Shown: positions 4,641-62,552, numbered from the stretch's first letter. The stretch is 64,000 nucleotides of DNA from Hydrolagus colliei (GCA_035084275.1 CM068756.1:14322001-14386000); one strand, 5' to 3'. Numbers and translations: made by a program. Notes: a model not told the origin generated them from the letters alone.

Positions 4641-4654
4641 CTGCCTCCCTACAT

Positions 4655-35012: not shown

Positions 35013-35099
35013 ATCACTGGCCACCATTGTGATCAGTTGTTCGGACTCGCTCTGAGCCTCTTGCTGGTGTAACACGGGTTTGCTGGTTGTCTAATATAA

Positions 35100-40195: not shown

Positions 40196-41759
40196 TGTTG
40201 TTCTATCCTATTTGCACATCCTGGAGCACATTAATTTATTCACTCTCTCATCTTATGAATAAATTTGGCACCATTTCAGTGGTGATTATTGATTAATACC
40301 TGTGATCTTTAAGTACCTTGTATAAATGGGCCTTATTTACATGTGATTTTATCCCATGGCAATACTCAAAATGTGCAGTATTTTCTTGTTCCTGGCCAAC
40401 AATTGCAGCCAAATAATTTTCGATTCCTTTCACGGCTGTTTGTCATTCCTGTATACAATTGGCCTATAATTGGTAGGGTGTGAGTTCTGAAAGGGTGAGA
40501 TCAGATAGGCCAAAGGGTTTTCTTCAACAAACCCAAACTAATGATATATATATGTTTTTAAAAGGCGTAGCCATTAAACAGAAACTAGTGTACACAAAAC
40601 ACATGCAGCTACAGTATCACCTCATGTAAAAACAAAACCAGAAATAGCTGGGAACACTCAGCAGGTGAGGCAGTGTCCATGGAGAATGGAAAAGTGTTTT
40701 TCCTTTCTCCATAGATGCTGCCTGACCTGCTGAGTGTTGCCACCAATTTCTGTTTTTTGGTTCAGATTTCCAGCATTTGCAGTACAGGTATTTTGTGTTT
40801 TTGTTCAGCAAGAATTTGTGGTTCCATAATGCATGTGATATTGCAGGGCCGTACGCAGGATTTTTTTTGGGGGGGTGCGAATTGCTAGTGATGGGACCAA
40901 CAATGGCCGGGGGTTTGCGGGCTGCCCCCGAAGCCCCCTCGAGGCTCCGACGTTTTACACAGTTTGAGGTCTTATTTAATCGGTTCAGAAGATCTAATAT
41001 GAACGGTAAATGTTTCATGCCCTTGGTGTTTAAGAGCATCATTATTTATTCAGTGTTTATATTTTCCCCGGTAGTCCGTGTCTAATTGGGAAGGTCGAAT
41101 GTGTTCGCCGATAAAAGCAAACACGATTGTTGACTCGATGATGTAAGGAATGCGAACGATAAAGTAAATTACAATCCAATTAACACAGTACAATGACGAA
41201 TGCTTGATAAATGTAGGCGTATAGAGAAAATGATCATAAACTACAGATTGACGGTAATTAATAAGTTGTTCTGCATTGTTATCCTAAGACTAAATTTCTT
41301 TCGGACTGTAATGAACAATAATGTAAGAGTAAAGTATGAATGATGTGCTCAGATATTCCAGCAAAGCAAATTTTATAAAAGACAAGAAAATATACAGAAA
41401 CTGAAAATCAGTGTCAAACAGTTAATTCACACGTGTTACAAGCCTGTTATCAGCATTATCCTGAAAATATCGTTGAACTGTGAGCAATAGTGTAGTTAGT
41501 TTTTATTTATTTATTTAGAATCAAAATTAAAGGCATCAAGCAATACTGATCTGACGAAAAAATACTTGAAAAAATAAGGGAGGGGAAATTAATTCTTTAA
41601 TAGCGTTCCGTATTCGAGACGCCTCGGTCGCTTTGAAGCCAATACGTCAACCGCTCTACCAATATCGATTTCCATATTATAATGAATGTGCATTAACGCG
41701 AGGGCTGAAAGTCGCTCCTATACGGAGCAGAATACTGGACACTTAGGCAAACCTCGACC

Positions 41760-42030
41760 AGGAGATTAGGTGACTCGTGAGGTATATATCAGGCTTCTAA
41801 GAGACGCCCTGCACGTTTACTGGCGACAGCATCTGACAAATAGTGAGCTATATGGTACACCACCACACTGGTATCACAGACATTACCGCAGAGGCGTCTT
41901 AGGTTTAGCGGACATAGCTGGAGAAGCCGGGAGGAAACTGTCCATAGTGCTACTATCCTATGGGAACCATTGCACGGTCACAGAACACGAGGTAGACCGA
42001 CCCTAACCTACCTCGCTACATGAAATGCAC
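41760..42030 (+). mobile_element. RTE-like LINE 3' fragment
   Basis: YIRLLRDALHVYWRQHLTNSELYG...; shares tatgggaaccattgcacgg...gaggtagaccg with 53065-53270. Confidence 0.65.
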
Positions 42031-42369
42031 GGATTATATTATTATTCAAAGAGAGAAAGAGTGACTTTCAGAGGAGTCACGTTGAAGAGATTTGTGTAGG
42101 AAGAGCTGTTGCTTTGCAGACTCGACTGCACCTGTCCTTTATATCCCGCTGGTGTGAGGCAGCAGTTCTGGGGACCTCAACTCTAACAGGTGCAGGTTAA
42201 CAATCCTTTAAGTTATAGCCAATTACGTGACACTGCCCACAAACCCTGAAAAGAAATCTCAGTTGTCAATCAGTCAGATATGCAACCTCGACCTTGGGAA
42301 TGTCTTCAGATTCAGAGGCACTGAGTAGGAGGGAAAGAAAGTTTCCCACAGGTGATAGAAGACAGCAGC

Positions 42370-42790
42370 ATCACCTGGCGAGTCGCCTGGCACAGTGAAT
42401 AGCACTCTGGCCTCTGAGTCAGAAAGTTGTGGGTTCAATCCCCACGTCGGCACTCGGTATCACACAGAGGAAGCTGACACTTCAATGTGGTGCTGTGGGG
42501 GGGGGGGGGGGGGGTTAGAGGCTGTTCTTTTGGTTGAGATGCTGAACCGAGGTCTGATCCGTCTGTTTAGATGGATGTGAAAAGATCCTCTGACACTACT
42601 CGAAAAGCGGAGGGAAGTCTCTCTCCTGTTGTCCTGGCCAACAAACGCCCCCAAATAAAATCGGTGACTCACTCCATCGGTGTTTGTGGGACAATCCTGG
42701 GCAAAAACTGGCCACTTTACAGTACGTTCTGTGAAGCGCTCTGAGCTGTCTCGACAGTGTACTAAGGCACTATTATCAATTGCTAACATT
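42370..42790 (+). mobile_element. Deu-domain type SINE
   Basis: tRNA-like head (gcctctgagtcagaaagttgtgggttcaatccc), central gatggatgtgaaaagatcc...gtcctggccaa, and L2-like tail. Confidence 0.75.
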
Positions 42791-43615
42791 ATCAGATTAA
42801 AATACGATTTCAGCTTCCACAAAGTGGTGCTACCTTTTTATGTAGTGACTTTATACGGGATGATTTCCGATTGACACACCACGTGGAATAGGCGCTAAAG
42901 CATTAGGCCTACGTCCATGAGTATTTTTTTTAAAGATAGGCATTCCCGTCCAGACACATATAACTTTTTTGTTGGGTTCTCAAAAGCTTTAATTTCTCAG
43001 AAGCTTGTAAATATGTTGTCATTGTTTGCTAGCATTACAGTCACACCTCTCAAAACTTGAGTCATTTTTACTTACGGTGATCAGATGAAAAGATGATTTT
43101 AACTCCAGAATTGGTGCTGTCCTTGTGGCTGTTTACGGGATGATTTCCAAACGAGGATTTGAGTCTTGGCGCCTATGTTTATCCAATCACGAGTCACAGA
43201 CTCGCCGCGTCATGGACTGGTCTATCGACGCGGTATGTTTTGGGGAGACGCCGATTCTGGTGCGCGACTCGATAATTTTATATTAATACTAAATCATTCA
43301 AAGATGTGTGTTTATAATTTATACATAGTTTTGAAGAACTGATTGTTGCACAAATGTTCAATAAATTTACTTGGTATTTAAATTTGATAAAAAAATGCAA
43401 TTCTCTACCCCGAAAAATGTGGACCTTTTATAATTTGGGGGGGGTGCGTACGCACCCGTCGCACTCCCCCTGCGTACGGCCTTGTATTGTGCACATTAGT
43501 TACAGCCAATTTCTTACAAAAGGTACAGCCTAATTGATGGAAAATAATAATAACACATTCTCTATATATATTCTGAGAGAATGAAGTGCTTGTAGTGGAA
43601 TTATGCTTTTACCTT

Positions 43616-44236
43616 TGTTGGAGATCCAATATCTCTCTCTCTTAACTTAGAAATAAGGTTACGGCCAGCCTTTATTCTTTGTTAAGTCAGATTCTTTATT
43701 TGGGTATAACAAAAGTTGGCACTAAGGTTAGATAACATACTCTACTCTATCACAGTTATAGTAATATACTACCCGGCGGGGTCTTTACTTTCACTCTTGT
43801 TGATCTGGGCGGTCTGCTGTCTCACTTACAGCTCTTCCTTCAATCGTACACACGGGCCTGGTTCAGCTCTGCTCGTATACCAAGAGGGACGAAGAAGAGA
43901 CCGAATGACCGCATGTCTTGCCCTTATAACCCTTTGCGCCCTTCCCCGACCTTCACGTGCACATCTCATGGACAATGCTCTTCCTCCAATCATTCCCGAC
44001 TATGCCCTCCAGGCAGGTGCGTGATCCTGCAGGGTCTTCGTGCCCGAAAGTTACAATGTTCACACTCCACCCTCATGGCGTTTGCACACCGCTCTCCCTT
44101 TTCCTCCTGTCTCTCAGGTCACGTGAGGGGCGTATGGTCAACTCAGCTCTCCAATCCCAGCACTCTTCAAGACAAAACCCCGCCTTTGCTAATCCACCAC
44201 ATGCCACAACACCAAATTTGAACTCACATCACAACA
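43616..44236 (-). repeat. LTR type A (3' LTR of provirus 1), 621 bp
   Basis: Nearly identical to 54741-55361 in reverse complement; preceded on minus by PPT ggcatcaaggtggggac; outer flank aagg. Confidence 0.93.
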
Positions 44237-44384
44237 GTCCCCACCTTGATGCCGAATTAACAAGAGGCATCATAACTACATAACGAATTAACAAGAGGCA
44301 TCATAACTACATAACGAAACATAACGAATTAACAAGAGGCATCATAACTACTTAATAAGACGCACAAACTCATACGCAGCCGTC

Positions 44385-44932
44385 TCAGGTGTCTTGGTGA
44401 CAGGGGACACCGGGACAGGAATCACAGATACCCTCCCCACTCCGATTAAAACATCGGTCACCTGGTGTTATGTGGACATGAACTGAGGGTGGATTGTTGT
44501 TGGTATGGAATTTGCGCGTGTATATTGTCGTTGTGTTGCCAGGTGCACAGCCGGCCTCCAAGCTTATGTAAAAACCCGTCGGCCCCATACTTCTCCCAAT
44601 CACTATTGCAGTAAATGGAATTGCTAGCATTGGAAACCCGTCCTTCACTGTGGGGAATCTGAGCACACACCCAACATTTAGATTTGTTAAGTGTCTGAGC
44701 TGATTTATGCGCTGTTAGGAGGAAGGTATTCCTCCCCGGATACCCACTCATACCCCAACTCATCAGCAGTAGTATTCCCATAATCGTCTGGATACCTAGC
44801 CACTTCCCAGGGCCATATCTGGGGTAAATTGGACCCTTCGCAGTTAGCGTCTCTTCCTCCCCCTTGGAACTCCGATTCCGTGCTCCGAAGGCATCGAACT
44901 TGTGCCACCACCGCCTGGATCAAGGATGACAC
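44385..44932 (-). pseudogene. env: env SU N-terminal remnant (frameshifted, TM part absent)
   Basis: NTFLLTAHKSAQTLNKSKCWVCAQIPHSEG then, after a shift, GFPMLAIPFT. Resembles the CWVC...P..GLP..AIP motif of fish/amphibian ERV envelopes; lies between IN and the PPT. Confidence 0.6.
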
Positions 44933-47900
44933 CTGTTAACTCTCCAGTATTAACATCCAAAACCTCCACCATCTGTGCCAATTTCAGTTGGTTAATATGA
45001 CACCATTTCAGGGGTTTAACCTGTGACCCTGGATTATGCACCAAATAAACCGCTGGACTGGCTTTCTCTATTATTTCGAAGGGTCCCTTCCATTTAGGCT
45101 CAAAGGTGTCCCTTCTCCCGTAATATCGAACCATCACTGAGTCCCCTATCGCTATTTCCTGGCATTTGACCCCTTTGTTGTAATATTTGCGCATAAATGC
45201 CTTTGACTTCCCTGTCTGTTGGGCAACGAACTGGTTAGTGTTTTGAATTGTCTGTAGCATCGTCCTAAGCCAAGTCTCCTCCGCTGCGCCCTGTAGAACA
45301 ATATTCCCTTTCTCCTGCTCCAAAGCCTCCTTTGTCATCACCATTGTGCATCCTGGGAGTCGCATGAGTCTCCCCGTCATAGCCTGATACGGTGAAATCC
45401 CTGTAGTGGAATGGGGCGTGGCCCGCATGGCCATCAAACACATTGGCAGCCCAAGTACCCATTGCAACGGGTGGTCTGCACAGAATTTTGACGTAGGAGT
45501 TTTAGTGTTTGATTTGATCTTTCTACGACTCCCGAGGACTGTGGATGATAGGCAATGTGTTTATGATGGTCAATTTCCATCATTTTCAGGAGTTGACTAA
45601 AAACTTCTCCAATGAAATGTGGACCCTGATCGCTATCCAACACCTCTGATATACCCCACCTGCAAAGCACCTCCCTCAAAAGAACTCGCGCAGCAGTCAA
45701 TGCGGTGGCATTTTTGGTGGGGAATGCCTCAATCCATTTAGTGAAGCTGTCAATTATCACTATGCAATACCGAAACCCGCCTGCTGTTGGTGGCAAAGGG
45801 CCAATTAAGTCTACCTGGACACTCGACCAAGGGCCTGAGGGGGGTGGTGCGCATCCGAGTAGTGCTCTTTTAACACCCGGTGTAGGGTTGTGTTGCAAGC
45901 AGACAATACATCGCGCACATCGATCGTGAACATCTTCTCCAATACCAGGCCACCACATGGAACTTTGTATCTTGGCAACTGTTTTTGAGACTCCGAAGTG
46001 GCCGCCTGTTGCATTAGAATGGTACAATGTAAATACCGCATCAGCACATGATGGGGGCACACATAAGACTGCAGGTGAGGTGTTCCCAAAGTGACGCATA
46101 AGAAGAGGTGTAGTGCTAGAGTCTGCACTGGCGGGAGTATATATTGAGGTATGTCGAAACCAGTCGTTTTGAGGCGGCGTAATATCTATATCGTCCAATA
46201 CGGAATCCACATGGTAACATATGGCTTCTACGTAGGGCGGGTAAGTCGCTTGCAAAGTAGTCAAATCGTCCATTGTGGGGTAAGTGTTTATTGCTGAAAC
46301 AAATGTTGACAAGGGGACTTCCCACAATGTACCAGTAGTGGTAGCGTTCTTCGCCGCTGTATCTGCCTCCGCATTGCCCTCCGCATGGCCCTCCGCATGG
46401 CCCTCCGCATGAACACCGGTACGTTGATGGGCGGGCACTTTCCCAATATGAATTGGTGATGAGCGTGTAAGTAGCAGTTCTGACAGTGTCCGCAAAAGCG
46501 AAGCGTGGCACAAGTGTTTGCCACTTGATGTTTTGAAACCCCTGCTCGAGTAAAGGGGTAGTAGAAGTACAGTATTGACAACATATGCGCTATCAGACCA
46601 GATATTGGCTGATATGTCTTTAGTCCTTGTCACTGCCTCCGTCAACGCAGCCAATTCCGCATATTGAGCCGAATGAGGAGTGCACTGGAATCCGGATACA
46701 GCATCAGGATATACCACCGCGAAACCTGTATGTGGTTTCCCATGAATGTAGTATGACGAACCATCAATGTATACCTCGATTGGTGAAACGCCAGCAAAGG
46801 ATTCTAGAGGAATCGGATCCACTCCGTTAGGCCCGAAAGATGTATTCGGTAAAGGGCAAGTATGAATATCCCCGGCGTACAGCAGCATCTGTGGTAGCAA
46901 AGTCGTGGGTTTTGCGACGACGGAAAGATTAGTGGATGTCAAAGCCAGCGCCCATTGAGTGAGTCGGTGTGAGGAAACGAGGGTAGTCCCAGGGTTCGTC
47001 AACAATTTAACAGATGTGTGAGGAGAGTGTAAAATTATCCTTTGTAGGCCTGTCACGTATCTGAAAGAATCCACGGCCCAACAGACAGCCAACAAGTGTT
47101 TTTCGCAATCCAAAAACTGTACCTCCACTCCTGTTAATATGCGAGAGATGAACGAAATAGGTGCAAGACGCCCATTCACTGGTTGAGTTAATACAGCCGC
47201 TAGAGACTGATCCGTCGAAGCCACCTCGATATGGAAAGGAATCTCGGGCTGAGGATGTATGAGGGCAATAGCTTGAATTGACGCCTGTTTGAGAGCATCG
47301 ACTGTGTGTTCTGGTTTCCAGACCGCTCGGAGGTCGTCCTCAATGTCCGACTTAACCAGGGAATACAGTGGCTTTGCCTCCTCCGCAAACTGTGGAATGA
47401 ATTGACGTTGATATCCCACCAGTCCGAGGAACGATCGCAGAGCTGTTTTTGTCACGGGGATGGGCAGTCTCTGTATCACCGATATCTTATGTGGGTCCGG
47501 GCGTAAGCCGGATGAGTCGAGTTGGACACCAAGGAAGGTGACCGGCGTCTCTGCGAATTTCACTTTATTGGGGTTCAGTTTAAGTCCCGCTTTTGCCAAC
47601 GCTTGAACGACGCCGAACACTACCGCCTTATGCTCTTCCAACGATGGTGAGGCAATCAGAATGTCATCCACATACTGGAGTACCCGAGACGTGGTAGGCA
47701 CCACTACAGAATCCAAGGCGCGAACCATTCGAAGGTGAAATATGGTCGGCGAGTTATGGAATCCCTGAGGCAGTACATTCCACGTATATTGTTGGTCTTC
47801 GAAGGTGAATGCAAATTTGTGTTGGTCAGCCTCGTTAATTGGGACGCTCCAAAATCCATTCGAAATATCCAATGTTGAGTAAATACAGGAGTCAATAGGA

Positions 47901-48370
47901 ATGTCTTTGAGAAGGGTACTCATGTCACTGACGAGGGGTGTGCACACGGGAGTAACAGAGTTTAAACGTCTGTAATCAATAGTCAAGCGCCAAGAACCAT
48001 CCGGTTTCTTGACTGGCCAAATCGGGGAGTTGGTCGTAAAGAGGCCTTTCCTGATTACTCCCTGTTCTAGTAGACTCTCAATGGTGACGGCGAGAGCCGG
48101 ACCCGCTTCCGAGGGAATCCGATACTGTTTGCACGGGGAATGTGTATGTCCATTAATCTCCTCACGTTGTTTAAGATGCCCACAGTCATGCTTGTGTTTT
48201 GCAAGGACGTCGGGGAACAGCGATAGCATTGCTTCAACCCAAGGTTGGGGATGTTGGAAAGGGGTACACAGAATGGCAATCCAGTCCTGCTCGGCTGCCT
48301 GTGTCAACTTCACCAATAGGGTGTAACCACAAACAGGTGTTTGTATAATCCAGCACTGCTCCCCTGTCAT
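44844..48370 (-). pseudogene. pol: pol: RT, tether RNase H, RNase H, integrase
   Basis: WRLTIDYR, LDISNGFWS, LPQGFHNSP, YVDD; second RH (YIDGSS...AQYAEL...SDS); HHCC zinc finger, D-D-E core and GPF module. Frameshift near 45450. Confidence 0.93.
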
Positions 48371-48707
48371 TCAACTCATCCCCGCCCAAAATACCCGACT
48401 CGGACATTCGCGATACCACAATCGGTTGGCGGAGAGTAATGGTTATGTTTGGAGTAAGTTCAACAGGAGTCGGTCGGAGGACATTCCCTGTCATACTTTT
48501 CCCAGAGACTCCCGCCATCATAACTGTCTCGCCTGTTGGTTGCGAGGGCCACCTATCGGTGGGGCATTTTAATATAGTGACAGCGGAGCCAGAATCAATC
48601 AGCATAGTATGGCGTTCACCCGCGCAATTAAGAGGGATAAATGGGCGCCCTCCCCGAGTAACTATCGGCACACACACCGTCTCGGTACAGCGCGGGTCGC
48701 CTCCCCG
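48234..48707 (-). CDS. pro: Retroviral aspartic protease, in frame behind the gag UGA
   Basis: MLIDSGSAVTIL and GILGGD motifs; frameshift to RT near 48265. Confidence 0.88.
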   Translation of the reverse strand, partial: RGGDPRCTETVCVPIVTRGGRPFIPLNCAGERHTMLIDSGSAVTILKCPTDRWPSQPTGETVMMAGVSGKSMTGNVLRPTPVELTPNITITLRQPIVVSRMSESGILGGDELNDRGAVLDYTNTCLWLHPIGEVDTGSRAGLDCHSVYPFPTSPTLG

Positions 48708-50502
48708 TCAATCTCTTGACGAGCCGCACACGCCACCCTCCGCCGGGGGAGCAGACGCCACTGACTGGACAGGTCTGAGCTCAGTCTGCGCGAGAAGCTG
48801 CGTATTCTGCTGGGCAAGTTGCGCATATTGCTGTGTCAACCGTTCCAGGTCGCGTTTCACGTCCAGGAACGGAGAATCATTCCCCCTTGTGCAATCGCCC
48901 GCAAAATGGCCCTGCTCTCCGCACGCAAAACATCGGTAACCTCCCCGGTAATTGCCCCGGCCTCTACGGCCTCTCGCGCGACCTCTGCCCCGGTTTGTTC
49001 CCCCGTTCCTCGATTGTCCCGCATTACCCTCTACAGTAGCTACTTGCGTAGACCACACTTCCTCCTGCTTAACCGGTTTCGCGGCTGTGCTACCCTTACT
49101 GGTGGTTCCGTAACATCGGGTTGCCAGACCCATCAATTCGTCAAATGGGCTCGCGGGGTTCACCCCGTATCCCATCGCGCATCTCAATGAGTCCTGCAGC
49201 TTCCCCAACCAACACCGTTTGTACATCTCAGACTCCTCTATATCGTCCCTTGCAACCTGCCCTAGCTGTGCCTCACTATAAATTGGCCACAACCTAACAT
49301 GAAACAGCAGTGGTCCCTCGCGTTCCCCTTGAATGCAGTTAGCCACATTTTGATGGGGAGCGGAGTGCAGATTAAGTACGTCCCTCACCGCCATTTCCAA
49401 CCCTCCTAAAGCCTCCCTTTCAACCTCGATACCATGTGGGGCAACAGGCTCCGTACCTCTACTGAAAGCATATTTTGAGGACGCGAGTGAGGTCGGTAGG
49501 GGTATATTGTGGATTATCATCCCTGAAGTCTGCCCGCTTGACTCTCCACGCCTGATAGGACGTGCCCGTTGTTAACTTGAGACCTAAAGTACCACACACC
49601 GCACTCAACTCCATTTGAGTCAGAGGGGTCTCGCTACGACGCCTAGTCTGCTGTGCCCCACTCCCGCCTGCCCGTTGTGTCACTGTTAGTGTTACAGGAC
49701 AGACGGGTTTGGGCAGCGGTGGTTCACTTTCCACGTCTTGTTTGTACTCTGCCGCCTCCTCTTCGAAAGCGTCCCAATCATCGTCCACTTGCTCACCATC
49801 ACCATACGCACTGTCCCCAGACTCCCGCATCACGGACGCCACTAATACACGCCTCCTACTTTGAATGTTTTCCTTCTCTCGCCTCCTATACTTTTCCAAC
49901 TCTAGTCTGTCCCCTTTTTCCAGTTTTCCAATCCGCATCGCGCCTCGCAAATCTGCATTTTCCAACTTCAGCCTCTCACACTCCCTCTGTACTGCCCGCA
50001 ACATCTCCTCCACTTCGCGATGTTTCATATTATCTGCCAATTCCATATTCATTAGACCTGTCTGTCGGCTATAGTTGTCTCTAGTCTCACCTTCTCTCTG
50101 CAGCGCCTGCTGAAGAGCTAGGGCAGCATTTCTCCCTTCTTTCTCTCTCTCCTTCTTCTCATTAAAATAATCCTTCTTATAGCGGGCTGCCTGCTCCTGA
50201 TGTTCCTTACCCTTGTAACTGTTTACCATCAACCAATATTTTAACAATATCATCTTTCCTTTCGTTCTTAATCTCCGTTCCTCTCCCAGTTTCTGAACCG
50301 CAGAGCTCAGTTCCTCAAAGGAGTGCGGTCCGGTCGGCTCCGGCACCGTATCATCGTCTTTCCCCAGTTTCAACTTCTGAACTGCCCTCGCTATCTTCTT
50401 CTGGTAACTATTCGCCCAATCTATGTCCGCCATCTTGCGGCTTTTCCCCGGTAAATTCAAATCCTTAACAACCTTATCCTTAACGACCTTAGTGCCACCC
50501 AA
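48708..50502 (-). pseudogene. gag: gag (one frameshift near 49460-49520)
   Basis: Coiled-coil-rich N-terminus, RG-rich segment and CCHC knuckle CFACGEQGHFAGDC; stop TGA at 48708-48710. Confidence 0.88.
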
Positions 50503-50627
50503 ATCCTGCCTTCTTCTCCAGAAAGTCGGATATCAGTCTCTTAACTACCTCAAGACACTCAACCCGTGTCTAACCGTTGTTACCCTTCAATGACCTGGTT
50601 CTCTTGGCTTATTTAGTGTCACTGAAT

Positions 50628-50645
50628 ATCCTGCCGACTACGCCA
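50628..50645 (-). other. Primer-binding site complementary to tRNA-Ser
   Basis: TGGCGTAGTCGGCAGGAT complements the vertebrate tRNA-Ser 3' end ATCCTGCCGACTACGCCA (from memory); 2 nt from the LTR end. Confidence 0.85.
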
Positions 50646-50647
50646 AT

Positions 50648-51095
50648 TGTTAGAGATTCGATTAACTGACTGAAAATTAGGTTACGGCCAACCTCCGATC
50701 AATCAGTTCATACAGAACATCTCTTTGTAAAAGCAGGTTCGTTTATTCAGATTCACCCGTTAGGGTTGACACTAAACGACCAAGTGTACAACAGTTTAAG
50801 TCAAGCCCCGAATCGCAGTAATTATGGAGATATACTACCCGGCGAGGTCGGACGAAGAAGGGGCCGAATGACCGCATGTCTTGCCCTTATAACCCTTTGC
50901 GCCCCTCCCCGACCTTCACGTGCACACCTCATGGACAATGCTCTTCCTCCAATCATTCCCGACTATGCCCTCCAGGCAGGTGCGTGATCCTGCGCGGTCT
51001 TCGCGCCCGAAAGTTACAATTTGCACACTCCAATACAAACCCCGCCTCCACCAATCCACCATGTGTCACAACGGCAAACCTGAATTATCACAACA
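50648..51095 (-). repeat. LTR type B (5' LTR of provirus 1), 448 bp
   Basis: Near-identical to 58313-58763 in reverse complement; outer flank cact. Confidence 0.93.
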
Positions 51096-53080
51096 CACTC
51101 TACCAATATCGATTTCCATGTTATAATGAATGTGCATTAACGCGAGTGCTGAAAGTCCTTCTTGCGTCATGCTTGCTCGTAGGTAGGTTTGTAATCTGCG
51201 TAAAGCACTTGCACTTCGTTCACATTCGCAACTTGTTGCAGGAATAGTGCAACACAATCTTAGAAGCGCAGAGATATTAGGGAACATATCATCATCATAC
51301 TCCATCATTGCTGCTGCTGCCATGGATGGACGTTGGTCAGAGGATCATGGTAGGAATCTGTGTTTCCATCCGAATAATTCTTGTGGGAACACTTCCGGTG
51401 AGTGCATATCTTCAGTGTATACTTCAACTACCTCTTCGAGTGATGGTACATCATCCCCACAAAACACAAACGGGACTAATCCCAATAGCCTTGATGAAAG
51501 CACCGATAAATCGGAAAACTGTGAGTCAAGCTCAGAATGGATGTGGCTTAGGAATGGAATCGCAACGTTTCGATGATAATGCTCCTCAGGTGCAGCTGCA
51601 GGCACGTTACTATGCATGGTCTGCCGACCAACAGTCCGTGGCATTGATGGCATGACGTTGACAGCATTAGCCATTCTAACAGCTTGCTTATATGATCTTG
51701 AAAATTCGATTTCTACATTATCGCAGAGCGCTTTGTATACCACTTTCACGGTTGAGATCTCACTGTAGGCCTTGATGATGTCAACAGTCTGCCCTTGCAA
51801 TTTTACTGTTATGCCAGCAAGAAGTGATAGATCGTAAGAAATATCACAATGAAGTCGAAGGAAGTGAGACTTGCCAATAGAGATGCTGCATCACAGCGAC
51901 TCTTTGGATCCCAACTAGCTTCCCTAAAATCTATGCCACATGATTCGACGTTGGCACCATGAGCAATATTCTCCAATGCTGTAATGATGTAGCTATATGC
52001 CTGATAGAAATGAGTATATGCCTCGTGTCTGGCAGCCCATCATGTCTTGCGCAAGTCAAGAAGCCCCTTTCGATGTTTTGTTTCCTCTGGCAAAGCCTTT
52101 CTAATAATCGATTGCAGGAGACCATTGCGCTTTGGACTTGCCAGGAAGAACCAACAGCCTTTAGCTTGTCAATTGTGTTTCTTGTGCGGGTGAGGGAGCA
52201 TGAATGCGCTATTACCAAGTTTAGGCAATGACCACTACAATGAACGTATACAGCTTTTGGTGACTGCTGTTTTATTCGTCGCTGAACACCAACATTATCA
52301 CTTGACATGTTTGCAGCTCCGTCCTAGCCTTGTCCACGGATGTTAGTAGCATCAAGGCCCGTCATCTTTAGAAAGTCCAAGATGGTACTGGCGATGACTT
52401 CACCGGTGATCCTTGGCAATTTAAGAAAAGACAGAAATTCATCCCTGATATCTTTATTTCTGTCAACGAAACGGAAACAAAGGGCGAGCTCCAATCAAAT
52501 CACTGCGGATTATATCATGGCCGATGATTGTGAAGATATCGTTCTGTATTCTAGGTGAGGCATATTTAGAATTCCTATTTGCAAGCCCAATACTAGCAAG
52601 GTGATGTCGAAGAACCTTGTCATGCTTCGCAATCATCTGTAGGGCTGCCAAAAAGTTTCCCAGATTTCCATTGTATTGTGTGACGTCACTCGTAATGGTG
52701 TAACTTTCCACGACTCTTTCATTATCTCCTCTAAGTGCAATGCACTGACGTCCACAGAATAATACAGCTTCGGCAACTGTTCTTATGATATGTTGATTTC
52801 TTTCAATGTTTTTCTTCTTTTCATCGACCAAACGAATGTCTATCTTATGTTGTGGGTTCGCAACAGAGTCGCGCATTGATGCCGATCTAATCATAGAATT
52901 TACGTGATAACCATTTTGTTCATGTTCCCTCGCCTTCTCGTTTAGTTTGTATAACATGGTAAAGGGTGTATTAACAAATGCCCCCATCCGTTTCTTCTCA
53001 CTTGTTTGGACCATCAGTGCACAGTGAATGCAAAAGGCAGCATCTAATGAAGGACTGTAGACCATCCATTGGCTGTCCAT
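51096..53080 (-). pseudogene. hAT transposase (PRKRIR/ZMYM1-like type), fragmented; last codons displaced to 58764-58830 (+)
   Basis: FCGRQCIALRG, YASPRIQNDI, VHCSGHCLNL, TSCECERSASALRRL hAT dimerisation motif. Confidence 0.88.
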
Positions 53081-53270
53081 AGTGCTATCCTATGGGAACC
53101 ATTGCACGGTTACAGAACACGAGGTAGACCGGCCCTAACCTACCTTGATACTCTGGAGCGTGATTCGGGTATTGGCAGGCGGGAGTTCTCAGGCTGCATG
53201 GAGAGAAGGGATCAGTGGAGAAGTATGGTTGTCAATGCCCGAGTTCGCTCGATCAAATGATGATGAAACT
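53065..53270 (+). mobile_element. RTE-like LINE 3' end inserted in the hAT copy
   Basis: LWEPLHGYRTRGRPALTY...WRSMVVNARVRSIK* followed by a tgatgatga tail. Confidence 0.7.
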
Positions 53271-53479
53271 ATTTTTAGGCCAAATTCGTGCGACATTTAT
53301 GTTTTTGGAATGTAGGTAAAATTGCTCCGGTAAATGAGGCCCTCATCTGGTAAAGAGGCCGCATGTGGTAAAATGGTAAAAATAGCCCCGAGGAAACAAT
53401 TTTAAAAAAGTTGAACATGATATGAAGATTAATCTGGTTAAAAATAGCTTCACTCTGGGTACAAAATTGAACGTGAAAT

Positions 53480-54060
53480 AAAGTAGCACTGTTTATTTTT
53501 GCGGTCATTTTTTTGCATGCCAGTGCAATTTTTAATTACAGGAATACATTTTTAATAATATAAATCAAATGTGATAATCAAGACAAAACAAGAAACATGA
53601 TATTTCAGAAACACGCCTATCAAAATTTAAGTCATTTTTACTTAGATTTATCAGATTAAAATATGATTTCAGCTTCCACAAAGTGGTGCTACCCTTGTGG
53701 CTGTATACGGGATGATTTCCAAACGAGGATGGATTTGAGTCTTGGCGCGCGCCTATGTTTACGCAGTGAGTCACAGACTCGCCGCGTCATTGACTAGCGC
53801 ATCTATCGACGCGGTATGTTTTGGGAAGACGCCGATTCTGGTGTGCGAGTAATTTTATATTAATACTAAAACATTCAAAGATGTGTATTTATAATTAATA
53901 CATAGTTTTGAATAACTAATTGTTACACAAATGCTCAATAAATTTACTTGGTATTTAAATTTGATAAAAATACAATTCTCTACCCCGTAAAATGTGGACC
54001 TTTTATAATTTGGGGGGGGGGGCGTACGCACCCGTCGCACCCCCCCTGCGTATGGGCCTA
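53480..54060. mobile_element. hAT copy 2, one terminal segment
   Basis: Similar to 42790-43484; ends in TIR cctgcgtatgggccta. Confidence 0.85.
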
Positions 54061-54350
54061 GGTTGAGGGATGAGGCGGAGAGGTACAGCTGGGTGTCGTC
54101 CGCATACATGTGGAAGTTTACCCCATGTTTGCGGATGACATTGCCCAGAGGGAGCATATATATGGTGAAAAGGAGGGGGCCGAGGACAGAGCCCTGGGGG
54201 ACGCCATGAGAAACTGTACGGGGGTTTGAGGAAAAAGTATTGGAGGATACAAAATGTAGGCGGTGGGTCAGGTAGGAGTGGAACCAGTCAAGGACTGTGC
54301 CTTGAAGGTTGAGGTGGGAAGAAAGGCATTGGAGGAGGATAGTGTGATTG
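54061..54350 (-). mobile_element. L2 fragment (5' half of the L2 that continues at 59709)
   Basis: [22 protein letters not shown] on minus; joins LNPQTIDVLTA at 59709 via ctcaacc. Confidence 0.85.
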
Positions 54351-55740
54351 ACTGTGTATGTTTCGCATACGTTTCACTTCTGCCATCGCCGCTGAACATT
54401 ATCCACAAGCCATTATCTACAGTTGAGATTGAAGATGCTATGCAATCAAAGTCCCATTAGGTGATGCAAAAACAGAAATCACTGGGAACACTCGCCATTC
54501 AGGCTGAGTCCATGTAGACAGGAAAGTGAGTCATTATTTCTGGTGCAGTACTTCTCACCAGGAGAGAGGCTTTTATGGAATTAAAGAGAGGGGGTAGGCA
54601 GTAAATTGTAGTGCAATTTGTCCAATACAGTGTAAAATGTGAAGGAAGGCCATTGAACTTTTTGTGCATCTGCTAAAAATATACCTAACATGAAACATCT
54701 AGGTGATAAAATCCCAATCGTCCTGTTGTATTTGTAAAGGTGTTGTGATGTGATTTCAAATTTATTGTTGTGACAAGTGGTGGATTAGCAAAGGCGGGGT
54801 TTTGTCTTGAAGAGTGCTGGGATTGGAGAGCTGAGTTGACCATACGCCCCTCACGTGACCTGAGAGACAGGAGGAAAAGGGAGAGCGGTGTGCAAACGCC
54901 ATGAGGGTGGAGTGTGAACATTGTAACTTTCGGGCACGAAGACCCTGCAGGATCACGCACCTGCCTGGAGGGCAGAGTCGGGAATGATTGGAGGAAGAGC
55001 CTTGTCCATGAGATGTGCACGTGAAGGTCGGGGAAGGGCGCAAAGGGTTATAAGGGCAAGACATGCGGTCATTCGGTCTCTTCTTCGTCCCTCTTGGTAT
55101 ACGAGCAGAGCTGAACCAGGCCCGTGTGTACGATTGAAGGAAGAGCTGTAAGTGAGACAGCAGACCGCCCAGATCAAGAAGAGTGAAAGTAAAGACCCCG
55201 CCGGGTAGTATATTACTATAACTGTGATAGAGTAGAGTATGTTATCTAACCTTAGTGCCAACTTTTGTTATACCCAAATAAAGAATCTGACTTAACAAAG
55301 AATAAAGGCTGGCCGTAACCTTATTTCTAAGTTAAGAGAGAGAGATATTGGATCTCCAACAATTGGCGTAGTCGGCAGGATTTGGGTGGCACTAAGGTCG
55401 TTAAGGATTTGAATTTACCGGGGAAAAGCCGCAAGATGGCGGACATAGATTGGGCGAATAGTTACCAGAAGAAGATAGCGAGGGCAGTTCAGAAGTTGAA
55501 ACTGGGGAAAGACGATGATACGGTGCCGGTGCCGACCGGACCGCACTCCTTTGAGGAACTGAACTCTGCGGTTCAGAAACTGGGAGAGGAACGGAGATTA
55601 AGAACGAAAGGAAAGATGATATTGTTAAAATATTGGTTGATGGTAAACAGTAACAGGGGTAAGGAACATCAAGAGCAGGCAGCCCGCTATAAGCGGGCTG
55701 CCTCAAAGACATTCCTATTGACTGCTGTATTTACTCAACA

Positions 55741-57745
55741 TTGGATATTTCGAATGGATTTTGGAGCGTCCCAATTAACGAGGCTGACCAACACAAATTT
55801 GCATTCACCTTTGAAGACCAACAATATATGTGGAATGTACTGCCTCAGGGATTCCATAACTCGCCGACCATATTTCACCTTCGAATGGTTCGCGCCTTGG
55901 ATTCTGTAGTGGTGCCTACCACGTCTCGGGTACTCCAGTATGTGGATGACATTCTGATTGCCTCACCATCGTTGGAAGAGCATAAGACGGTAGTGTTCGG
56001 CGTCGTTCAAGCGTTGGCAAAAGCGGGACTTAAACTGAACCCCAATAAAGTGAAATTCGCAGAGACGCCGGTCACCTTCCTTGGTGTCCAACTCGACTCA
56101 TCCGGCTTACGCCCGGACCCACATAAGATATCGGTGATACAGAGACTGCCCATCCCCGTGACAAAAACAGCTCTGCGATCGTTCCTCGGACTGGTGGGAT
56201 ATCAACGTCAATTCATTCCACAGTTTGCGGAGGAGGCAAAGCCACTGTATTCCCTGGTTAAGTCGGACATTGAGGACGACCTCCAAGCGGTCTGGAAACC
56301 AGAACACACAGCCGCGGTCGATGCTCTCAAACAGGCGTCAATTCAAGCTATTGCCCTCATACATCATCAGCCCGAGAATCCTTTCCATATAGAGGTGGCT
56401 TCGACGGATAAGTCTCTAGCGGCTGTATTAACTCAACCAGTGAATGGGCGTCTTGCACCTATTTCATTCATCTCTTGCTTATTAACAGGAGTGGAGGTCC
56501 AGTTTTCGGATTGCGAAAAACACTTGTTGGCTGTCTGTTGGGCCGTGGATTCTTTCAGATACGTGACAGGCCTACAAAGGATAATTTTACACTCCTCACA
56601 CACCTGTTAAATTGTTGACCAACCCTGGGACTACCCTCGTTTCCTCACACCGACTCACTCAATGGGCGCTGGCTTTGACATCCACTAATCGTTCCGTCGT
56701 CGCAAAACCCACGACTTTGCTACCACAGATGCTGCTGTACGCCGGGGATATTCATACTTGCCCTTTACCGAATACATCTTTCGGGCCTAACGGAGTGGAT
56801 CCGATTCCTCCAGAATCCTTTGCTGGCATTTCACCAATCGAGGTATACATTGATGGTTCGTCATACTACATTCATGGGAAACCACATACAGGTTTCGCGG
56901 TGGTATATCCTGATGCTGTATCCGGATTCCAGTGCACTCCTCATTCGGCTCAATATGCGGAATTGGCTGCGTTGACGGAGGCAGTGACAAGGACTAAAGA
57001 CATATCAGCCAATATCTGGTCTGATAGCGCATATGTTGTCAATACTGTACTACTACTACCCCTTTACTCGAGCAGGGGTTTCAAAACATCAAGTGGCAAA
57101 CACTTGTGCCAAGCTTCGCTTTTGCGGACACTGTCAGAACTCCTACTTACACGCTCATCACCAATTCATATTGGGAAAGTGCCCGCCCATCAACATACCG
57201 GTGTTCATGCACAGGGCAATGCGGAGGGCCATGCGGAGGGCAATGCGGAGGGCCATGCGGAGGGCAATGCGGACGGCCATGCGGAGGGCCATGCGGAGGC
57301 AGATACAGCGGCGAAGAACGCTGCCACTACTGGTACATTGTGGGAAGTCCCCTTGTCAACATTTGTTTCAGCAATAAACACTTACCCCACAATGGACGAT
57401 TTGACTACTTTGCAAGCGACTTACCCGCCCTACATAGAAGCCATACGTTACCATGTGGATTCCGTATTGGACGATATAGATATTACGCCGCCTCAAAACG
57501 ACTGGTTTCGACATACCTCAATATATACTCCCGCCAGTGCAGACTCGTGCACTACACCTCTTCTTATGCGTCACTTTGGGAACACCTCACCGGCAGTCGT
57601 ATGTGTGCCCCCATCATGTGCTGATGCGGTATTTACATTGTACCATTCTAATGCAACAGGCGGCCACTTCGGAGTCTCAAAAACAGTTGCCAAGATACAA
57701 AGTTCCATGTGGTGGCCTGGTATTGGAGAAGATGTTCGCGATTGA
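55741..57745 (+). pseudogene. pol: Partial pol of provirus 2 (RT, RNase H, IN zinc finger)
   Basis: Near-identical to provirus 1 pol; frameshift at about 56610. Confidence 0.9.
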
Positions 57746-58077
57746 TGTGCGCGATGTATTGTCTGCTTGCAACACAACCCTACACCGGGTGTTAAAAGAG
57801 CACTACTCGGATGCGCACCACCCCCCTCAGGCCCTTGGACCAGTGTCCAGATTGATTTTACTGGCCCTTTAACACCAACAGATGTTATGCTTGATCAACA
57901 GGAGCATGACAGACCGCCTGCGGCGGTGGTGGCACACATTCGATGCCTTCGGAGCACGAAATCGGAGTACCAAGGGGGAGCAAGAGACGCTAACTGCGAA
58001 GGGACCAATTTACCCCAGATATGGCCCTGGGAAGTGGCTGGGTATCCAGACGATTATGGGACTACTACTGCTGATGT

Positions 58078-58295
58078 CTCTTGTTAATTCGTTATGTTTC
58101 GTTACGTAGTTATGATGCCTCTTGTTAATTTGTTAAGTTTCGTTATGTAGTTATGATGCCTCTTGTTAATTTGTTAAGTTTCGTTATGTAGTTATGATGC
58201 CTCTTGTTAATTTGTTAAGTTTCGTTATGTAGTTATGATGCCTCTTGTTAATTCGTTATGTTTCGTTATGTAGTTATGATGCCTCTTGTTAATTT
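58078..58295 (+). repeat. 41-bp tandem repeat (5 full units plus partial) in the ERV 3' region
   Basis: ctcttgttaatt recurs at 58078, 58119, 58160, 58201, 58242, 58283. Confidence 0.9.
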
Positions 58296-58763
58296 GGCAT
58301 CAAGGTGGGGACTGTTGTGATAATTCAGGTTTGACGTTGTGACACATGGTGGATTGGTGGAGGCGGGGGTTTGTATTGGAGTGTGAAAATTGTAACTTTC
58401 GGGCGCGAAGACCCCGCAGGATCACGCACCTGCCTGGAGGGCATAGTTGGGAATGATTGGAGGCAGAGCATTGTCCATGAGGTGTGCACGTGAAGGTCGG
58501 GGAGGGGTGCAAAGGGTTATAAGGGCAAGACATGCGGTCATTCGGCCCCCTTTCTTCGTCCGACCTCGCCGGGTAGTATATCTCCATAATTACTGCGATT
58601 CGGGGCTTGACTTAAACTGTTGTACACTTGGTCGTTTAGTGTCAACCCTAACGGGTGAATCTGAATAAACAAACCTGCTTTTACAAAGAGATGTTCTGTA
58701 TGAACTGATTGATCGGAGGTTGGCCATAACCTAATTTTCAGTCAGTTAATCGAATCTCTAACA

Positions 58764-59708
58764 AGTGGTTGACGTATTCGCTTCAAAGCAACCAAGGCGT
58801 CTCGAATATGGAACACTATTAAATAATTCATTTCCCCTCTATTATTTATTCAAGTATTTTTTCTTCAGATCAGTATTGCTTGATGGGTCACTTCCTTTCA
58901 TTGTGATTCTAAATAAATAAATACTAACTACACTATTGCTCACAGTTCAACGATATTATCAGGATAATGCTGATAACAGGCTTGTAACACGTGTGAATTA
59001 ACTGTTTTACACTGATTTTCAGTTTCTGTAAATTTTCTTGTCTTTTATAAAATTTGCTTTATTGGAATATCTGAGCACATAATTCATACTTTACTCTTAC
59101 ATTATTGTTCATGACAGTCCGAAAGAAATTGAGTCTTAGGATAACAATAAGATATGTATTTGTGCTCAAGTAATACAATATATGTATTCAGTTAAAGCAT
59201 GGAAATATTGAGAATACCTCCATGATGTAAAGAAAAATGTTGCAGAACAACTTATTAATTACTGTCAATCCGTAGTTTCTGATAATTTTCGCTTATACGC
59301 ATACATTTATCAAGCATTCGTCATTGTACTGTTTTAATTGGATTGTAATTTACTTTATCGTTCACATTCCTTACATCATCGTGTCAACAATCGTGTTTGC
59401 TTTTATCGGTGAACACATTTGACCTTCCCAAAAGATTTAGACACGGACTACCTGGGAAAATAAAAACACTGAATAAATAATGATGCTCTTAAAATCCAAG
59501 GACATGAAACATTTACCGTTCATATTGGATCTTCTAAACCGATTAAATAAGACCTCAAACTGTGTAAAACATGGGAGCCTCGAGGGGGCTTCGCCCCCTT
59601 CACCCCCGCCAGGGGCCCTCAGGGGCAGCCCCCAAGCCCCCGGCCATTGTTGGTCCCATCACTAGCAATTCGCACCCCCCCCAATTAAAAATCCTGCATA
59701 CGGGCCTG
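58764..59708. mobile_element. hAT copy 2, other terminal segment
   Basis: Reverse complement of 40844-41660; ends in TIR cctgcatacgggcctg. Confidence 0.85.
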
Positions 59709-60585
59709 CTCAACCCCCAGACCATCGATGTTCTGACAGCACGTCTGTCTGACATTGAGTCCTGGACGAGGGACAATTTCCTCCAATTGAAAGTGAGCAA
59801 GACCGAGGCCCTCCTGATTGGCTCAAGCCTGTGCCTCCGCACATCGGGCGCTGCCAGCCTCAACATCCAAGGCTGTACTCTCCACCTCACAAAGCCAGTC
59901 AGGAAACTCAGCATCACGTTCGACCCCAAACTCTCCTTCCTCCCCCACATCCGCGCCTTGACTGGCATGCGTACATCACCTCAAGGCTGGACTACGGAAA
60001 CTCTCTCCTCGTCGGCCTCCCTAGCTCCTCCATTCACAGGCTGCAGATCATCCCAAACTCTGCAGCCCGTGTACTATCCCACACCCACCTCCGTGACCAC
60101 ATAACCCCCACCCTCGCCTGTCTCCACTGGATCCCCATCCCCCAGAGGATCGAGTTCAAGATCCTCGTCCTCACCTTCAAGGCCTTACACGGCCTTGCCC
60201 CGCCCTATCTTTCCGACCTACTCTCCCCCTACAAGCCCACCCGGACCATCCGTTCAGCAGGACTTGGCCTGCTCCAAGCCCCCCGCCCAAACCACCCCAC
60301 CATCGGAGGCCAGGCCTTCAGTTTCTCCGCTCCCACCCTGTGAAATTCCATCCCCCAATCCCTCTGTTTTGTTTCCTCCCTTTCCTCTTTCAAGGCCGGT
60401 TTGAAGACTTTCCTTTTCGACCATGTCTTCTGTTGCCCCCCTAATTTTTCGACCTTCCCTATGTTTTTTTACCCCCTCCCAAACACTCCCCTCCCAGCTC
60501 GGGTCACACGCCTCCTGTGCAGCGCCTTGGGACGTCCTCCCGACGTGAAAGGTGCTCTATAAGTGCAATTTGTTGTTGTTGTTGT
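59709..60585 (+). mobile_element. L2 3' fragment
   Basis: Very similar to 10720-11690 with an internal deletion; ttgttg tail. Confidence 0.9.
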
Positions 60586-61499
60586 ATTGGAGGGTTAAAC
60601 TTTAAATCCTAGAAGTTCCGCTCAAAACGTTCAACCGGAATATGATTGGCGAACTGTGCATAACCTCGTTGTTGCTATTATGAGTAGGAATAATCCCTGG
60701 GTTGAGCAATAGGCCTTTAGTTGCCTTTACTTGGCATTTAGGGCTGATCAATGTTGAGTGCCTGAGTTATCGAGATTGTTCAATGGAGAGAAGAATAAAT
60801 GGTTATCTTCTTGGTGTTTTCAGAATCTCAAAGTGTCAGTTATGTCGAAACCAAAATATCCAAACGGCTGAAGCAGAATCCAGACTGTACAGTAGATCGG
60901 TCTGACCACACCGTGATTGCTAATGGATAGTGATCGATGTTGTCACGGTGACATAATTGGACTGCCCAAGCGGCAATGAAGAGGAAAGCAATTTTGTATT
61001 GTATCTTTTATCTTTTGCCCACAAATATACAGCCATTTCTGTGCTTTGAGATGTCGATAAGATGTGAAAAGTGCTATCTATATCAAATGCGAGGATTCTT
61101 ATTCTTATTAAAGCAATGAGGATGATTCCCAGGATGACAGGAATGCATTTTAAGATGTAATAAAATTATGAATAGGTTTGGGAAAATTAAACCCAGGTCA
61201 ATAGTTCAAGTTATAACAAAAGAGCAGAATAAGTGTAGGAAGGTGGAGAGTTGCACGGGCAATATATGGACACCAGGTTTTTTTCATCACAGTTAAAATA
61301 AAGAATTGGAACAATTGGGAAGGAAAGTGGGTTAAGATCATGAAGCCACCTCAATTGAAACAAAGTTTGAGACTGTGATGGGGACAGGGTCGGGTGGATT
61401 TTTTTTTAAAAAAGGTTTGTGTTAAACAGACTCTATTACCAACAGAACTCACACAGCTACAGCAGCACCTAGTGTACTAAGAAAGCATATCTGTTGTTA

Positions 61500-61735
61500 T
61501 GTGTTGCAGGGCGAAACCTTGGGCAAGTTTCCTTACTCCACATGCTTAATAATAAAAAACAATAATATAATTACTTATTTTCAATCCCCGACTGTCTGTG
61601 GTCCGGGACGCTGCTGTACGCAATTGGCTGCAGTGATTCGTCCGCAAATATACAAACAATCCACTTTACAGTATACTCTGTGAAGCGCTTTGAGGCGTCG
61701 ATACGACGCTATATCAAATGCAAGGATTATTCTTA
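61500..61735 (+). mobile_element. 5'-truncated tRNA-derived SINE inserted in block B
   Basis: gggcgaaaccttgggcaagtttccttactccac...gcgctttgag...ctatatcaaatgcaaggattatt. Confidence 0.8.
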
Positions 61736-62477: not shown

Positions 62478-62552
62478 TTACTCTGTATTATTAACGGGAG
62501 TCCAATTCAACCAGCCGTGAGCCACCGCCTCGTTCTCTGCTCCGGGTATCAT
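62478..62552 (-). CDS. Terminal exon of a predicted gene 4 (MIPGAENEAVAHGWLNWTPVNNTE*); upstream exons lie beyond 64000
   Basis: gttttacag acceptor; paralogous to the gene 3 terminal exon; AATAAA (minus) at 62128-62133. 63900-64000 aligns to about 31270-31370, just before the gene 3 TM exon. Confidence 0.55.
   Translation of the reverse strand: MIPGAENEAVAHGWLNWTPVNNTE

Follow-up and report, generated by a model that had tools for sequence, protein, structure and literature searches.

A window of 64,000 nucleotides from Hydrolagus colliei (GCA_035084275.1 CM068756.1:14322001-14386000), in which positions are counted from the first letter, contains two related proviruses in opposite orientations amid a cluster of SIRP-like receptor genes. 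Provirus 1 (43616-51095, minus strand) and provirus 2 (54741-58763, plus strand) lie on either side of a host segment of 3645 bp (51096-54740). The layout of long terminal repeat (LTR), primer-binding site (PBS), gag, pro, pol, polypurine tract (PPT), and second LTR, with a target-site duplication (TSD), is that of an endogenous retrovirus (ERV). Comparison of the window with itself, together with base-level checks, identified four LTRs of two types, A and B, all of which start with TGTTGTGAT and finish with AACA. LTR-A1 (43616-44236, minus strand; PPT at 44237-44247) and LTR-A2 (54741-55361, plus strand) differ at 8 of 621 sites (1.29%), and LTR-B1 (50648-51095, minus strand) and LTR-B2 (58313-58763, plus strand) differ at 8 of 448 sites (1.79%) plus 3 gap columns; between types, identity is 85-87% when only aligned columns are counted, with approximately 274 further gap columns. 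The PBS, an 18-mer identical in both proviruses that we take to be of the tRNA-Ser type, is located at 50628-50645 (minus strand) after LTR-B1 and at 55364-55381 (plus strand) adjoining LTR-A2, and a PPT precedes LTR-A1 and LTR-B2. Provirus 1 therefore has a 5' LTR-B and a 3' LTR-A, and provirus 2 has a 5' LTR-A and a 3' LTR-B, so that the chimeric structure proposed in an initial annotation of this sequence is borne out by the LTR types and the positions of PBS and PPT.

The 4-bp TSDs match by LTR type, and within each provirus the two flanking 4-mers differ. The sequence aagg is present at 43612-43615 (minus strand) and 54737-54740 (plus strand), and cact is present at 51096-51099 (plus strand) and 58764-58767 (minus strand); in a sense-strand reading, aagg is found 3' of LTR-A1 and 5' of LTR-A2, and agtg (equivalent to cact) 5' of LTR-B1 and 3' of LTR-B2. 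Both cross-matches would arise by chance with a probability of (1/256)^2 = 1.5e-5, and the pairing of TSDs by LTR type that had been reported thus stands. Homologous proviruses sit at both ends of the host segment in opposite orientation, and both are reciprocally chimeric in their LTR, leader, and tail types.

Paralogs in the Window Change Strand at the Breakpoints

Each break was checked by comparing the host pieces one at a time with the remainder of the window, the in-window paralogs serving as the reference in place of an allele or ortholog. The segment at 51096-54740, the strand of which switches relative to these paralogs, is made up of three pieces. The main body of a hAT transposon (51100-54060, minus strand) includes a broken transposase with a hAT dimerization domain (PF05699, E 2e-11), weak matches to DUF4371 and DUF659, and one of two 16-bp terminal inverted repeats (TIRs), which ends at 54060. 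It is followed by an L2-like long interspersed element (LINE) piece upstream of the hAT site (54061-54357, minus strand), which is 90% identical to 10420-10716 and overlaps an open reading frame with a reverse transcriptase (RT) match (53858-54373), and by a flipped piece of a locally repeated host block (54358-54736, minus strand) with reverse matches to 4482-4854 and 7871-8044. The counterparts of two of these pieces lie beyond provirus 2, where the 3' end of the hAT element (58768-59708, plus strand) carries the last transposase codons and the second TIR, ending at 59708, and the L2 continues at 59709-60583 (plus strand; 91% identity to 10710-10968 and 87% to 11042-11685). As assembled, the TIRs at 54060 and 59708 point in the same direction.

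Three independent classes of paralogs provide empty sites. A second, uninterrupted hAT copy with inward-facing TIRs (40844-43484) matches 59148 to 58764 on the minus strand over 41275-41655 (91%) and then 51098-51157 on the plus strand over 41654-41713 (97%); it contains the B site once, with a single cact at approximately 41651-41654, and its transposase C-terminus is uninterrupted. The host-repeat paralogs flip strand at the A site, from 4364-4444 (plus) to 4482-4854 (minus) and from 7741-7872 (plus) to 7871-8044 (minus), with further switches in 5671-5862 and 28834-28996, and the A-site 4-mer is single in them (e.g., in 7845-7910 and 5765-5830). Relative to the paralog at 4364-5498, the order of the corresponding pieces is 43485-43566 (plus), 54738-54371 (minus), and 60652-61397 (plus). 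The L2 paralog at 10420-10968 changes strand at the hAT ends, because 10420-10716 matches 54357 to 54061 (minus) and 10710-10968 matches 59709-59967 (plus), the overlap being the 7-bp ctcaacc. In comparison with these paralogs, no host DNA has been lost or gained at the breakpoints beyond the TSDs.

Given that the paralogs switch strand at the predicted breakpoints, and given the swapped TSDs together with three classes of empty site (hAT, host repeats, and L2), the sequence comparisons support an inversion of 51096-54740 with both breakpoints within the two proviruses. The ectopic recombination between proviruses that the initial annotation had put forward is supported on the same grounds. 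Reversing the segment restores, as had been claimed, the host block across the A site and the transposase C-terminus across the B site, through which the second hAT copy reads; the L2 becomes continuous across ctcaacc and the same-facing TIRs are explained. The claimed collinearity with 25670-26400 is retained for the outer order only, as the flipped piece (54358-54740) scores 60 there versus 295 for 4245-5500 and 160 for 7656-8100. The proposed sequence of events, L2, then hAT, then ERV-B, then the inversion, holds by nesting. ERV-A was inserted in a host repeat, so nesting gives no order relative to ERV-B, and LTR divergence gives none either (8/621 versus 8/448, Fisher p = 0.61).

The TSDs of the two hAT copies, as judged from empty paralogs, are 7 bp (ctcaacc) for the split copy at 54060/59708 and 5 bp (tattg) for the copy at 40844-43484. 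The target duplication of hAT elements is typically 8 bp, from which both copies deviate.

The Proviruses Share a Near-Identical Core Bounded by Two Switches

Inside their unlike ends, the two proviruses share a core that is located at 45827-50510 (minus strand) in provirus 1 and at 55374-57838 (plus strand) in provirus 2, where approximately 2.26 kb is absent at 55693/55702. Compared over six collinear blocks from the PBS to 57838, the two copies differ at 40 of 2403 sites (1.66%, confidence interval 1.19-2.26) versus 1.29% for LTR A and 1.79% for LTR B, a divergence that cannot be told apart from the LTR clock when both types are pooled (p = 0.77). At the rate assumed in PMC4422223, 2.2e-10 per site per year, which that paper itself treats as uncertain, the LTR pairs would be roughly 30-40 My old. 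The core copies are 98% identical across 2.1 kb of pol, and their longest exact match is 297 nt. The pol differences include 9 synonymous and 26 nonsynonymous changes, with an expected synonymous share of 0.25-0.29 and an omega of 0.94-1.15, and are on these counts apparently neutral. Because core divergence equals the LTR clocks and the pol differences appear neutral, the cores would have been about identical when neutral decay started. The differences between them look like private post-insertion mutations, and A/B-diagnostic single-nucleotide polymorphisms are probably absent from the interval of the crossover, which removes the basis for the suggestion that such internal sites could place it. 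The proviruses had also been described as divergent; this is correct for the LTRs, the 5' leader, and the 3' tail, to which divergence appears to be confined, and incorrect for the shared core, which is only 1.7% different.

The 5' switch lies at 50503-50510 (minus strand), where an 8-nt match to the 3' end of the PBS is followed by A-type post-PBS sequence. Between it and the PBS, provirus 1 alone carries a B-type leader of approximately 117 nt (50511-50627, minus strand). Nucleotides 50612-50621 of this leader are complementary to 50767-50776 in LTR-B, as 55249-55260 in LTR-A2 are to the leader at 55387-55398. Perfect stems between an LTR and the first 30 nt beyond the PBS extend to at most 12 bp for the A-A pair (reached in 0 of 1000 shuffles) and 10 bp for the B-B pair (10 of 1000), versus only 6-7 bp for the crossed pairs; both own-type stems form in predicted folds (z of -2.1 and -3.0), and their LTR arms align with each other. 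The pairing resembles the U5-leader stem named for HIV-1 (PMC1865047; here and below, published systems are compared through excerpts of the papers cited). Each 5' LTR retains a leader of its own type, and the exchange therefore lies downstream of the leader.

The 3' switch falls in integrase at 57838/57839, beyond which 13 of 60 sites differ up to 57898 versus 40 of 2403 upstream (p = 1e-10) while the frame is kept. The divergent B-type 3' tail that begins there (57839-58312, plus strand) comprises an in-register integrase piece, two deletions, an env piece, 41-nt repeats, and the PPT. Similarity between A and B is patchy from this point on, with 8/155 differences in the env piece, 3/115 in the PPT-proximal repeats, 14/64 at the LTR start, and 12/183 in an LTR core of 183 nt. 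The latter count is obtained in both LTR copies, in which the 183 nt are flanked by LTR parts that are approximately 22% or more apart. The presence of this patchwork in both copies indicates that A and B swapped sequence before integration. To judge from the sequence, then, one recent A-type core occupies both proviruses and is bounded by two switches.

The tract of lowest divergence within the core is 55830-56284, where a single site differs over 455 nt. According to which blocks are compared, p is 0.009 or 0.021 for this tract and 0.053 or 0.098 for the longest exact run of 297 nt. This low-divergence statistic was picked after the data had been seen. Poorly aligned deletion edges and the divergent tail had inflated the first null (p = 0.009), which was replaced by one computed from 7 trimmed blocks (48 differences in 2558 nt); the stretch 57839-57898, which this trimming removed, is a genuine divergence signal. 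The crossover is unmappable because the cores carry no lineage-diagnostic sites; it would lie somewhere in the shared core, with 55830-56284 as a weak candidate. A crossover within the LTRs is ruled out, as A1 matches A2 and B1 matches B2 from end to end. Gene conversion of LTRs alone is also ruled out, as the flanks would stay unswapped, and a switch at the PBS is ruled out by the pairing of each leader with its own 5' LTR type.

Origin of the Inversion

The model that we consider best, and probable although well short of certain, combines a B-LTR/A-core recombinant with subsequent nonallelic homologous recombination (NAHR) between near-identical inverted cores. Two related retroviruses or retroelements, with LTRs of types A and B, inserted by normal integration at sites 3.6 kb from each other and in opposite orientations, and each generated its own 4-bp TSD. 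The B-LTR element would already have been a recombinant, with B LTRs, leader, and 3' tail around a gag-pol core from the A lineage, made by template switches, presumably during reverse transcription, of which one would have occurred in integrase and the other at the 8-nt match to the end of A's PBS. A switch at the PBS end would fit reverse transcription, and ERV recombinants formed at microhomology are known (PMC6112702). The two cores would have constituted a near-identical inverted repeat, and a single nonallelic homologous crossover inside it would have inverted the interval and left two reciprocal chimeras with exchanged TSDs, both of which would then have decayed neutrally. Several points weigh against this model. 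The B-LTR/A-core recombinant is deduced from only these two copies, identical core junctions are expected if the inversion itself converted the interior of B, and the insertion of two elements of the same family and the same age within 3.6 kb is a coincidence that the model leaves unexplained. The arrangement is, moreover, read from assembly sequence rather than from reads, and the failure to place the crossover counts in the same direction.

The age of the core equals the ages of the LTRs, which fits both homology that predated the inversion and homology that the inversion event made. Under the second possibility, which we regard as a serious but clearly less probable alternative, the repair of a broken or gapped B provirus that was divergent throughout used A as the template, copied approximately 4.7 kb from the PBS end to integrase, and was resolved as a crossover, homologous at the integrase end and with 8-nt microhomology at the leader end; this equals a staggered-break inversion that duplicates A's core. 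B-type sequence is indeed found outside the core only and, immediately at the 3' junction, shows 18-24% divergence, the divergence of the core is not significantly above that of LTR-A (one-sided p = 0.32) so that the copy could post-date the A insertion, and the neighboring copies are accounted for as the near-identical ones. Staggered breaks that duplicate breakpoint sequence have also been described in Drosophila (PMC2775673). However, a very long tract that ends exactly at the 3' end of A's PBS is needed, for which reverse transcription seems the more natural source; the event must closely follow the A insertion while B's LTR age matches by chance; and the near-identical patches elsewhere, in the LTR core and ahead of the PPT, indicate that A and B had already exchanged sequence in replicating lineages. 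That proviruses approximately 20% divergent caused the inversion, and that repair wrote a 4.7-kb copy of one into the other and created an inverted repeat that only appears causal, is rather unlikely in our judgment. If it were true, the segment could flip again, ages based on LTRs and core would be falsified, and the homology needed for ERV-mediated rearrangement would have been overstated.

Misassembly would be an explanation if the assembler had crossed between similar cores and the genome carried A-A and B-B proviruses, since a misjoin within cores that are 98% identical over 2.1 kb in pol gives the same sequence pattern. We consider this improbable, as two reciprocal misjoins are required, the longest exact match is only 297 nt, and the lack of any N in a repeat-rich 64 kb suggests long reads that span a repeat of 2-5 kb. 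Finally, the inversion could have accompanied integration if two cDNAs with unlike LTRs, formed by reciprocal intermolecular plus-strand transfers, had been joined by cross-paired ends in the manner of a hybrid-element insertion. Equal ages and the closeness of the sites would be explained, and analogous aberrant transposition has been described for DNA transposons (PMC2775673), but several rare events are needed together, and the prediction that the switch falls right at the PBS and that each leader matches the type of its 3' LTR conflicts with the pairing of each leader with its own 5' LTR (12 and 10 bp versus 6-7 bp). This explanation seems highly improbable and is the least plausible that we weighed.

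Comparison with Known Rearrangements

The closest parallel is inversion 2z3 of Drosophila buzzatii, mediated by Galileo, to which opposite orientation, exchanged TSDs, and reciprocal chimerism were applied as criteria; it shares with the present case copies in opposite orientation, exchanged TSDs, chimerism of both copies, and ends that are alike between copies and unlike within a copy (PMC2775673). Unlike in that system, the elements here are LTR retroelements in a vertebrate, the interval is 3.6 kb, the empty sites come from paralogs rather than from a noninverted chromosome, and the crossover is unmappable in cores without lineage-diagnostic sites. A gibbon SERV-K/MER11 provirus likewise involves a crossover between separate proviruses whose reciprocal product was seen by complementary mismatched TSDs, but that case is a translocation with a solo LTR as the partner, whereas here the two products are adjacent, each retains two LTRs, and together they mark out an inversion (PMC11379458). 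The same source notes that reciprocal pairs had not been identified in the set of human HML-2 rearrangements described by Hughes and Coffin 2001. NAHR between human ERVs is also recombination of dispersed retroelements, although there it yields deletions and duplications between direct copies (PMC4195946). In a survey of human rearrangements mediated by transposable elements, all 15 of 15 Alu/L1 inversions occurred between oppositely oriented elements, with a median of 2,454 bp; those inversions are Alu- or L1-mediated, and ERV cases are counted there but not analyzed (PMC9675761). For the B-LTR/A-core element, recKoRV serves as a model because its ends come from one element and its interior from another, with some breakpoints at microhomologies (PMC6112702). 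The parents KoRV and PhER are dissimilar and recKoRVs mostly have matching TSDs, whereas the partners here are related and the recombinant origin is deduced from two copies.

In the literature searched, which is not the whole of the published record and cannot show absence from print, we did not find an inversion flanked by two reciprocal two-LTR proviruses; the excerpts of PMC3625200, PMC3038909, PMC12350158, PMC8781664, and PMC12368964 contain no such case. The mechanism is already known, and reciprocal two-LTR proviral pairs have rarely been documented. The locus is an unusually complete fossil of a provirus-mediated rearrangement, in which two-LTR reciprocal products and empty-site controls are present in the same window. 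Chimeric proviruses of this kind mislead dating by 5' and 3' LTRs, since the LTRs of one provirus are approximately 14% apart where alignable versus 1.3-1.8% for the true pairs, and they would presumably escape detectors in which similarity between LTRs or agreement between TSDs is a requirement. The type-specific LTR-leader stem can be used as a marker to tell chromosomal chimeras from those of reverse transcription.

Coding Content and Classification of the Proviruses

In provirus 1, gag occupies two frames, includes a zinc knuckle, and is separated by an in-frame TGA (48710-48708) from the protease (48234-50433 for the whole, minus strand); the matches to PF00098 and PF00077 in this region are both slightly below curated cutoffs. 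The pol region (44844-48370, minus strand) encodes RT, a tether-like RNase H, RNase H, and integrase (PF00078, PF17917/17919, PF00075, PF17921, PF00665, and PF18697), with the C-terminal part of integrase in a different frame (44844-45560). A putative env remnant with a hydrophobic leader, a CWVC motif, and a broken frame follows at 44385-44935 (minus strand); no transmembrane subunit was recognized in it, it has no Pfam or Atlas match, and it may be assigned to env by its position and by the CX2C motif tabulated for XtERV-S and murine leukemia virus (MLV). Neither Pfam nor Atlas gave a match usable for naming gag or env. Provirus 1 has frame breaks inside gag and integrase and at the passage from pro to pol, and env is represented by the broken 5' remnant only. 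Provirus 2 has a frame break in pol and deletions of approximately 2.26 kb (gag-pro to the start of RT), 0.87 kb (integrase-env), and 0.4 kb (env).

Just 5' of the PPT, 31/41-nt tandem repeats are present in provirus 1 at 44253-44355 (minus strand), where the 41-nt array has approximately 2 copies; provirus 2 has approximately 5.5 copies directly before its PPT (58072-58296). The presence of the array in both proviruses and the absence of the 3' part of env from both suggest a shared env-truncated lineage. Where RNase H ends, a 12-nt unit is tandemly repeated in frame, 3.8 times in provirus 1 (46366-46411) and 7.2 times in provirus 2 (57213-57299). The junction of the gag-RT deletion in provirus 2 (55677-55703) contains an 8-nt templated fold-back insert that forms a perfect 11-bp hairpin. 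It resembles the products of synthesis-dependent end joining in the chromosome, in which case the deletion would have followed insertion.

The element is a deep-branching vertebrate ERV. Pol appears to contain a dual RNase H, with PF17917/17919 (tether-like) at residues 354-478 and PF00075 at 531-676, and the combination of a tether and an acquired RNase H is a criterion that separates retroviruses from Ty3/Gypsy (PMC7947760). Matches of the polymerase to solved structures are nearly equal for Ty3 (210 bits), foamy virus (209), and MLV (200), and the best match of Pol among the database matches listed is a Xenopus tropicalis protein (49%). In a quick tree built from the query, the branch of which is long, and 66 of the 120 listed hits, the query is sister to X. 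tropicalis P0005/P0020 (99 in the Shimodaira-Hasegawa-like approximate likelihood ratio test) and falls neither in the invertebrate Gypsy-like clade (99/100) nor in the clade that includes Gag_p30-bearing sequences. The Mononegavirales-type fusion protein of lokiretrovirus Env (PF00523) had no match, although the env remnant is short and the tree includes no named lokiretrovirus reference. XtERV-S of X. tropicalis has similar features, including a Ser PBS, TGT...ACA LTR ends, gag-TGA-pro in frame, a short leader, and a CX2C motif near the N-terminus of Env, but it has YIDD, a dUTPase, 5-bp TSDs, and no Cys-His box (PMC8278194), whereas the present element has YVDD, a zinc knuckle, 4-bp TSDs, and no Pfam match to dUTPase. 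Assignment to XtERV-S or to an ERV-L-like class III thus failed on four features (YIDD, dUTPase, Cys-His box, and TSD length). Among cartilaginous fishes, elephant-shark ERVs related to snakehead retrovirus are known (CmiERV lineage I, PMC4422223); the database hits listed for Pol include no sequence named as snakehead retrovirus or CmiERV.

The SIRP-Like Gene Cluster and Neighboring Repeats

Three genes on the minus strand have leader, variable (V), and C1 exons, at 1660-4124, 14084-20211, and 31525-35029; each has a single V and a single C1 domain, and the V exons end in a J-like G-x-G-T motif. Transmembrane (TM) exons were found for two of them, and exons with motifs like the immunoreceptor tyrosine-based inhibitory motif (ITIM) for one, the gene at 14084-20211, in which a TM exon is accompanied by two cytoplasmic exons that carry ITIM-like motifs. 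We call the genes SIRP-like by their V and C1 Pfam matches, TM exons, and cytoplasmic tyrosine motifs; the sole match for a C1 exon among 73 candidates is a SIRP-like protein of Callorhinchus milii (67%). Nearest to the inversion is the complete 5' part of a SIRP-like receptor gene with leader, V, C1, and TM exons (31525-35029, minus strand), the start codon of which, at 35029, is approximately 16 kb away. Because the match of 63877-64000 is to 31249-31371, immediately below the TM exon at 31525-31638, another paralog probably lies beyond the end of the window at 64000. Nowhere in the window were cytoplasmic exons found for the third gene or for the gene expected beyond 64000. A partial second copy of the 3' end of a C1 exon is present at 17917-18048, just downstream of the exon at 18224-18535.

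The initial annotation had placed the inversion inside an immune gene cluster. The cluster is there, but in and next to the flipped segment tblastn, a TM scan, and an ITIM scan found no exon, although short divergent exons may be missed by them, and an Rfam scan of 38000-64000 gave 0 matches. The segment, 3.6 kb of transposon and repeat debris, thus looks to have had a small impact on the host, and any effect on the SIRP-like genes could be regulatory only.

Other repeats surround the genes. The third gene lies between two copies of another LINE-like element (24091-25538 and 37387-38640) that are 89-92% identical, oppositely oriented, and separated by approximately 12 kb; this pair is a possible second inversion substrate. 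The least decayed of many L2-like copies has a 696-codon open stretch with an RT domain (9603-11693; E 6e-35). A tRNA-Val(TAC) called by ARAGORN on the minus strand (33915-33988) lies within a repeat that also matches 795-1129 and is possibly the tRNA-derived head of a short interspersed element. Many copies of the noncoding host block, all in one orientation and with 68-82% identity, are present (4245-7012, 7656-8075, 11725-12800, 25598-26445, 28628-31371, and 60584-64000); the block starts approximately 120 bp upstream of the start codon of the first gene and may be a promoter-containing duplicon.

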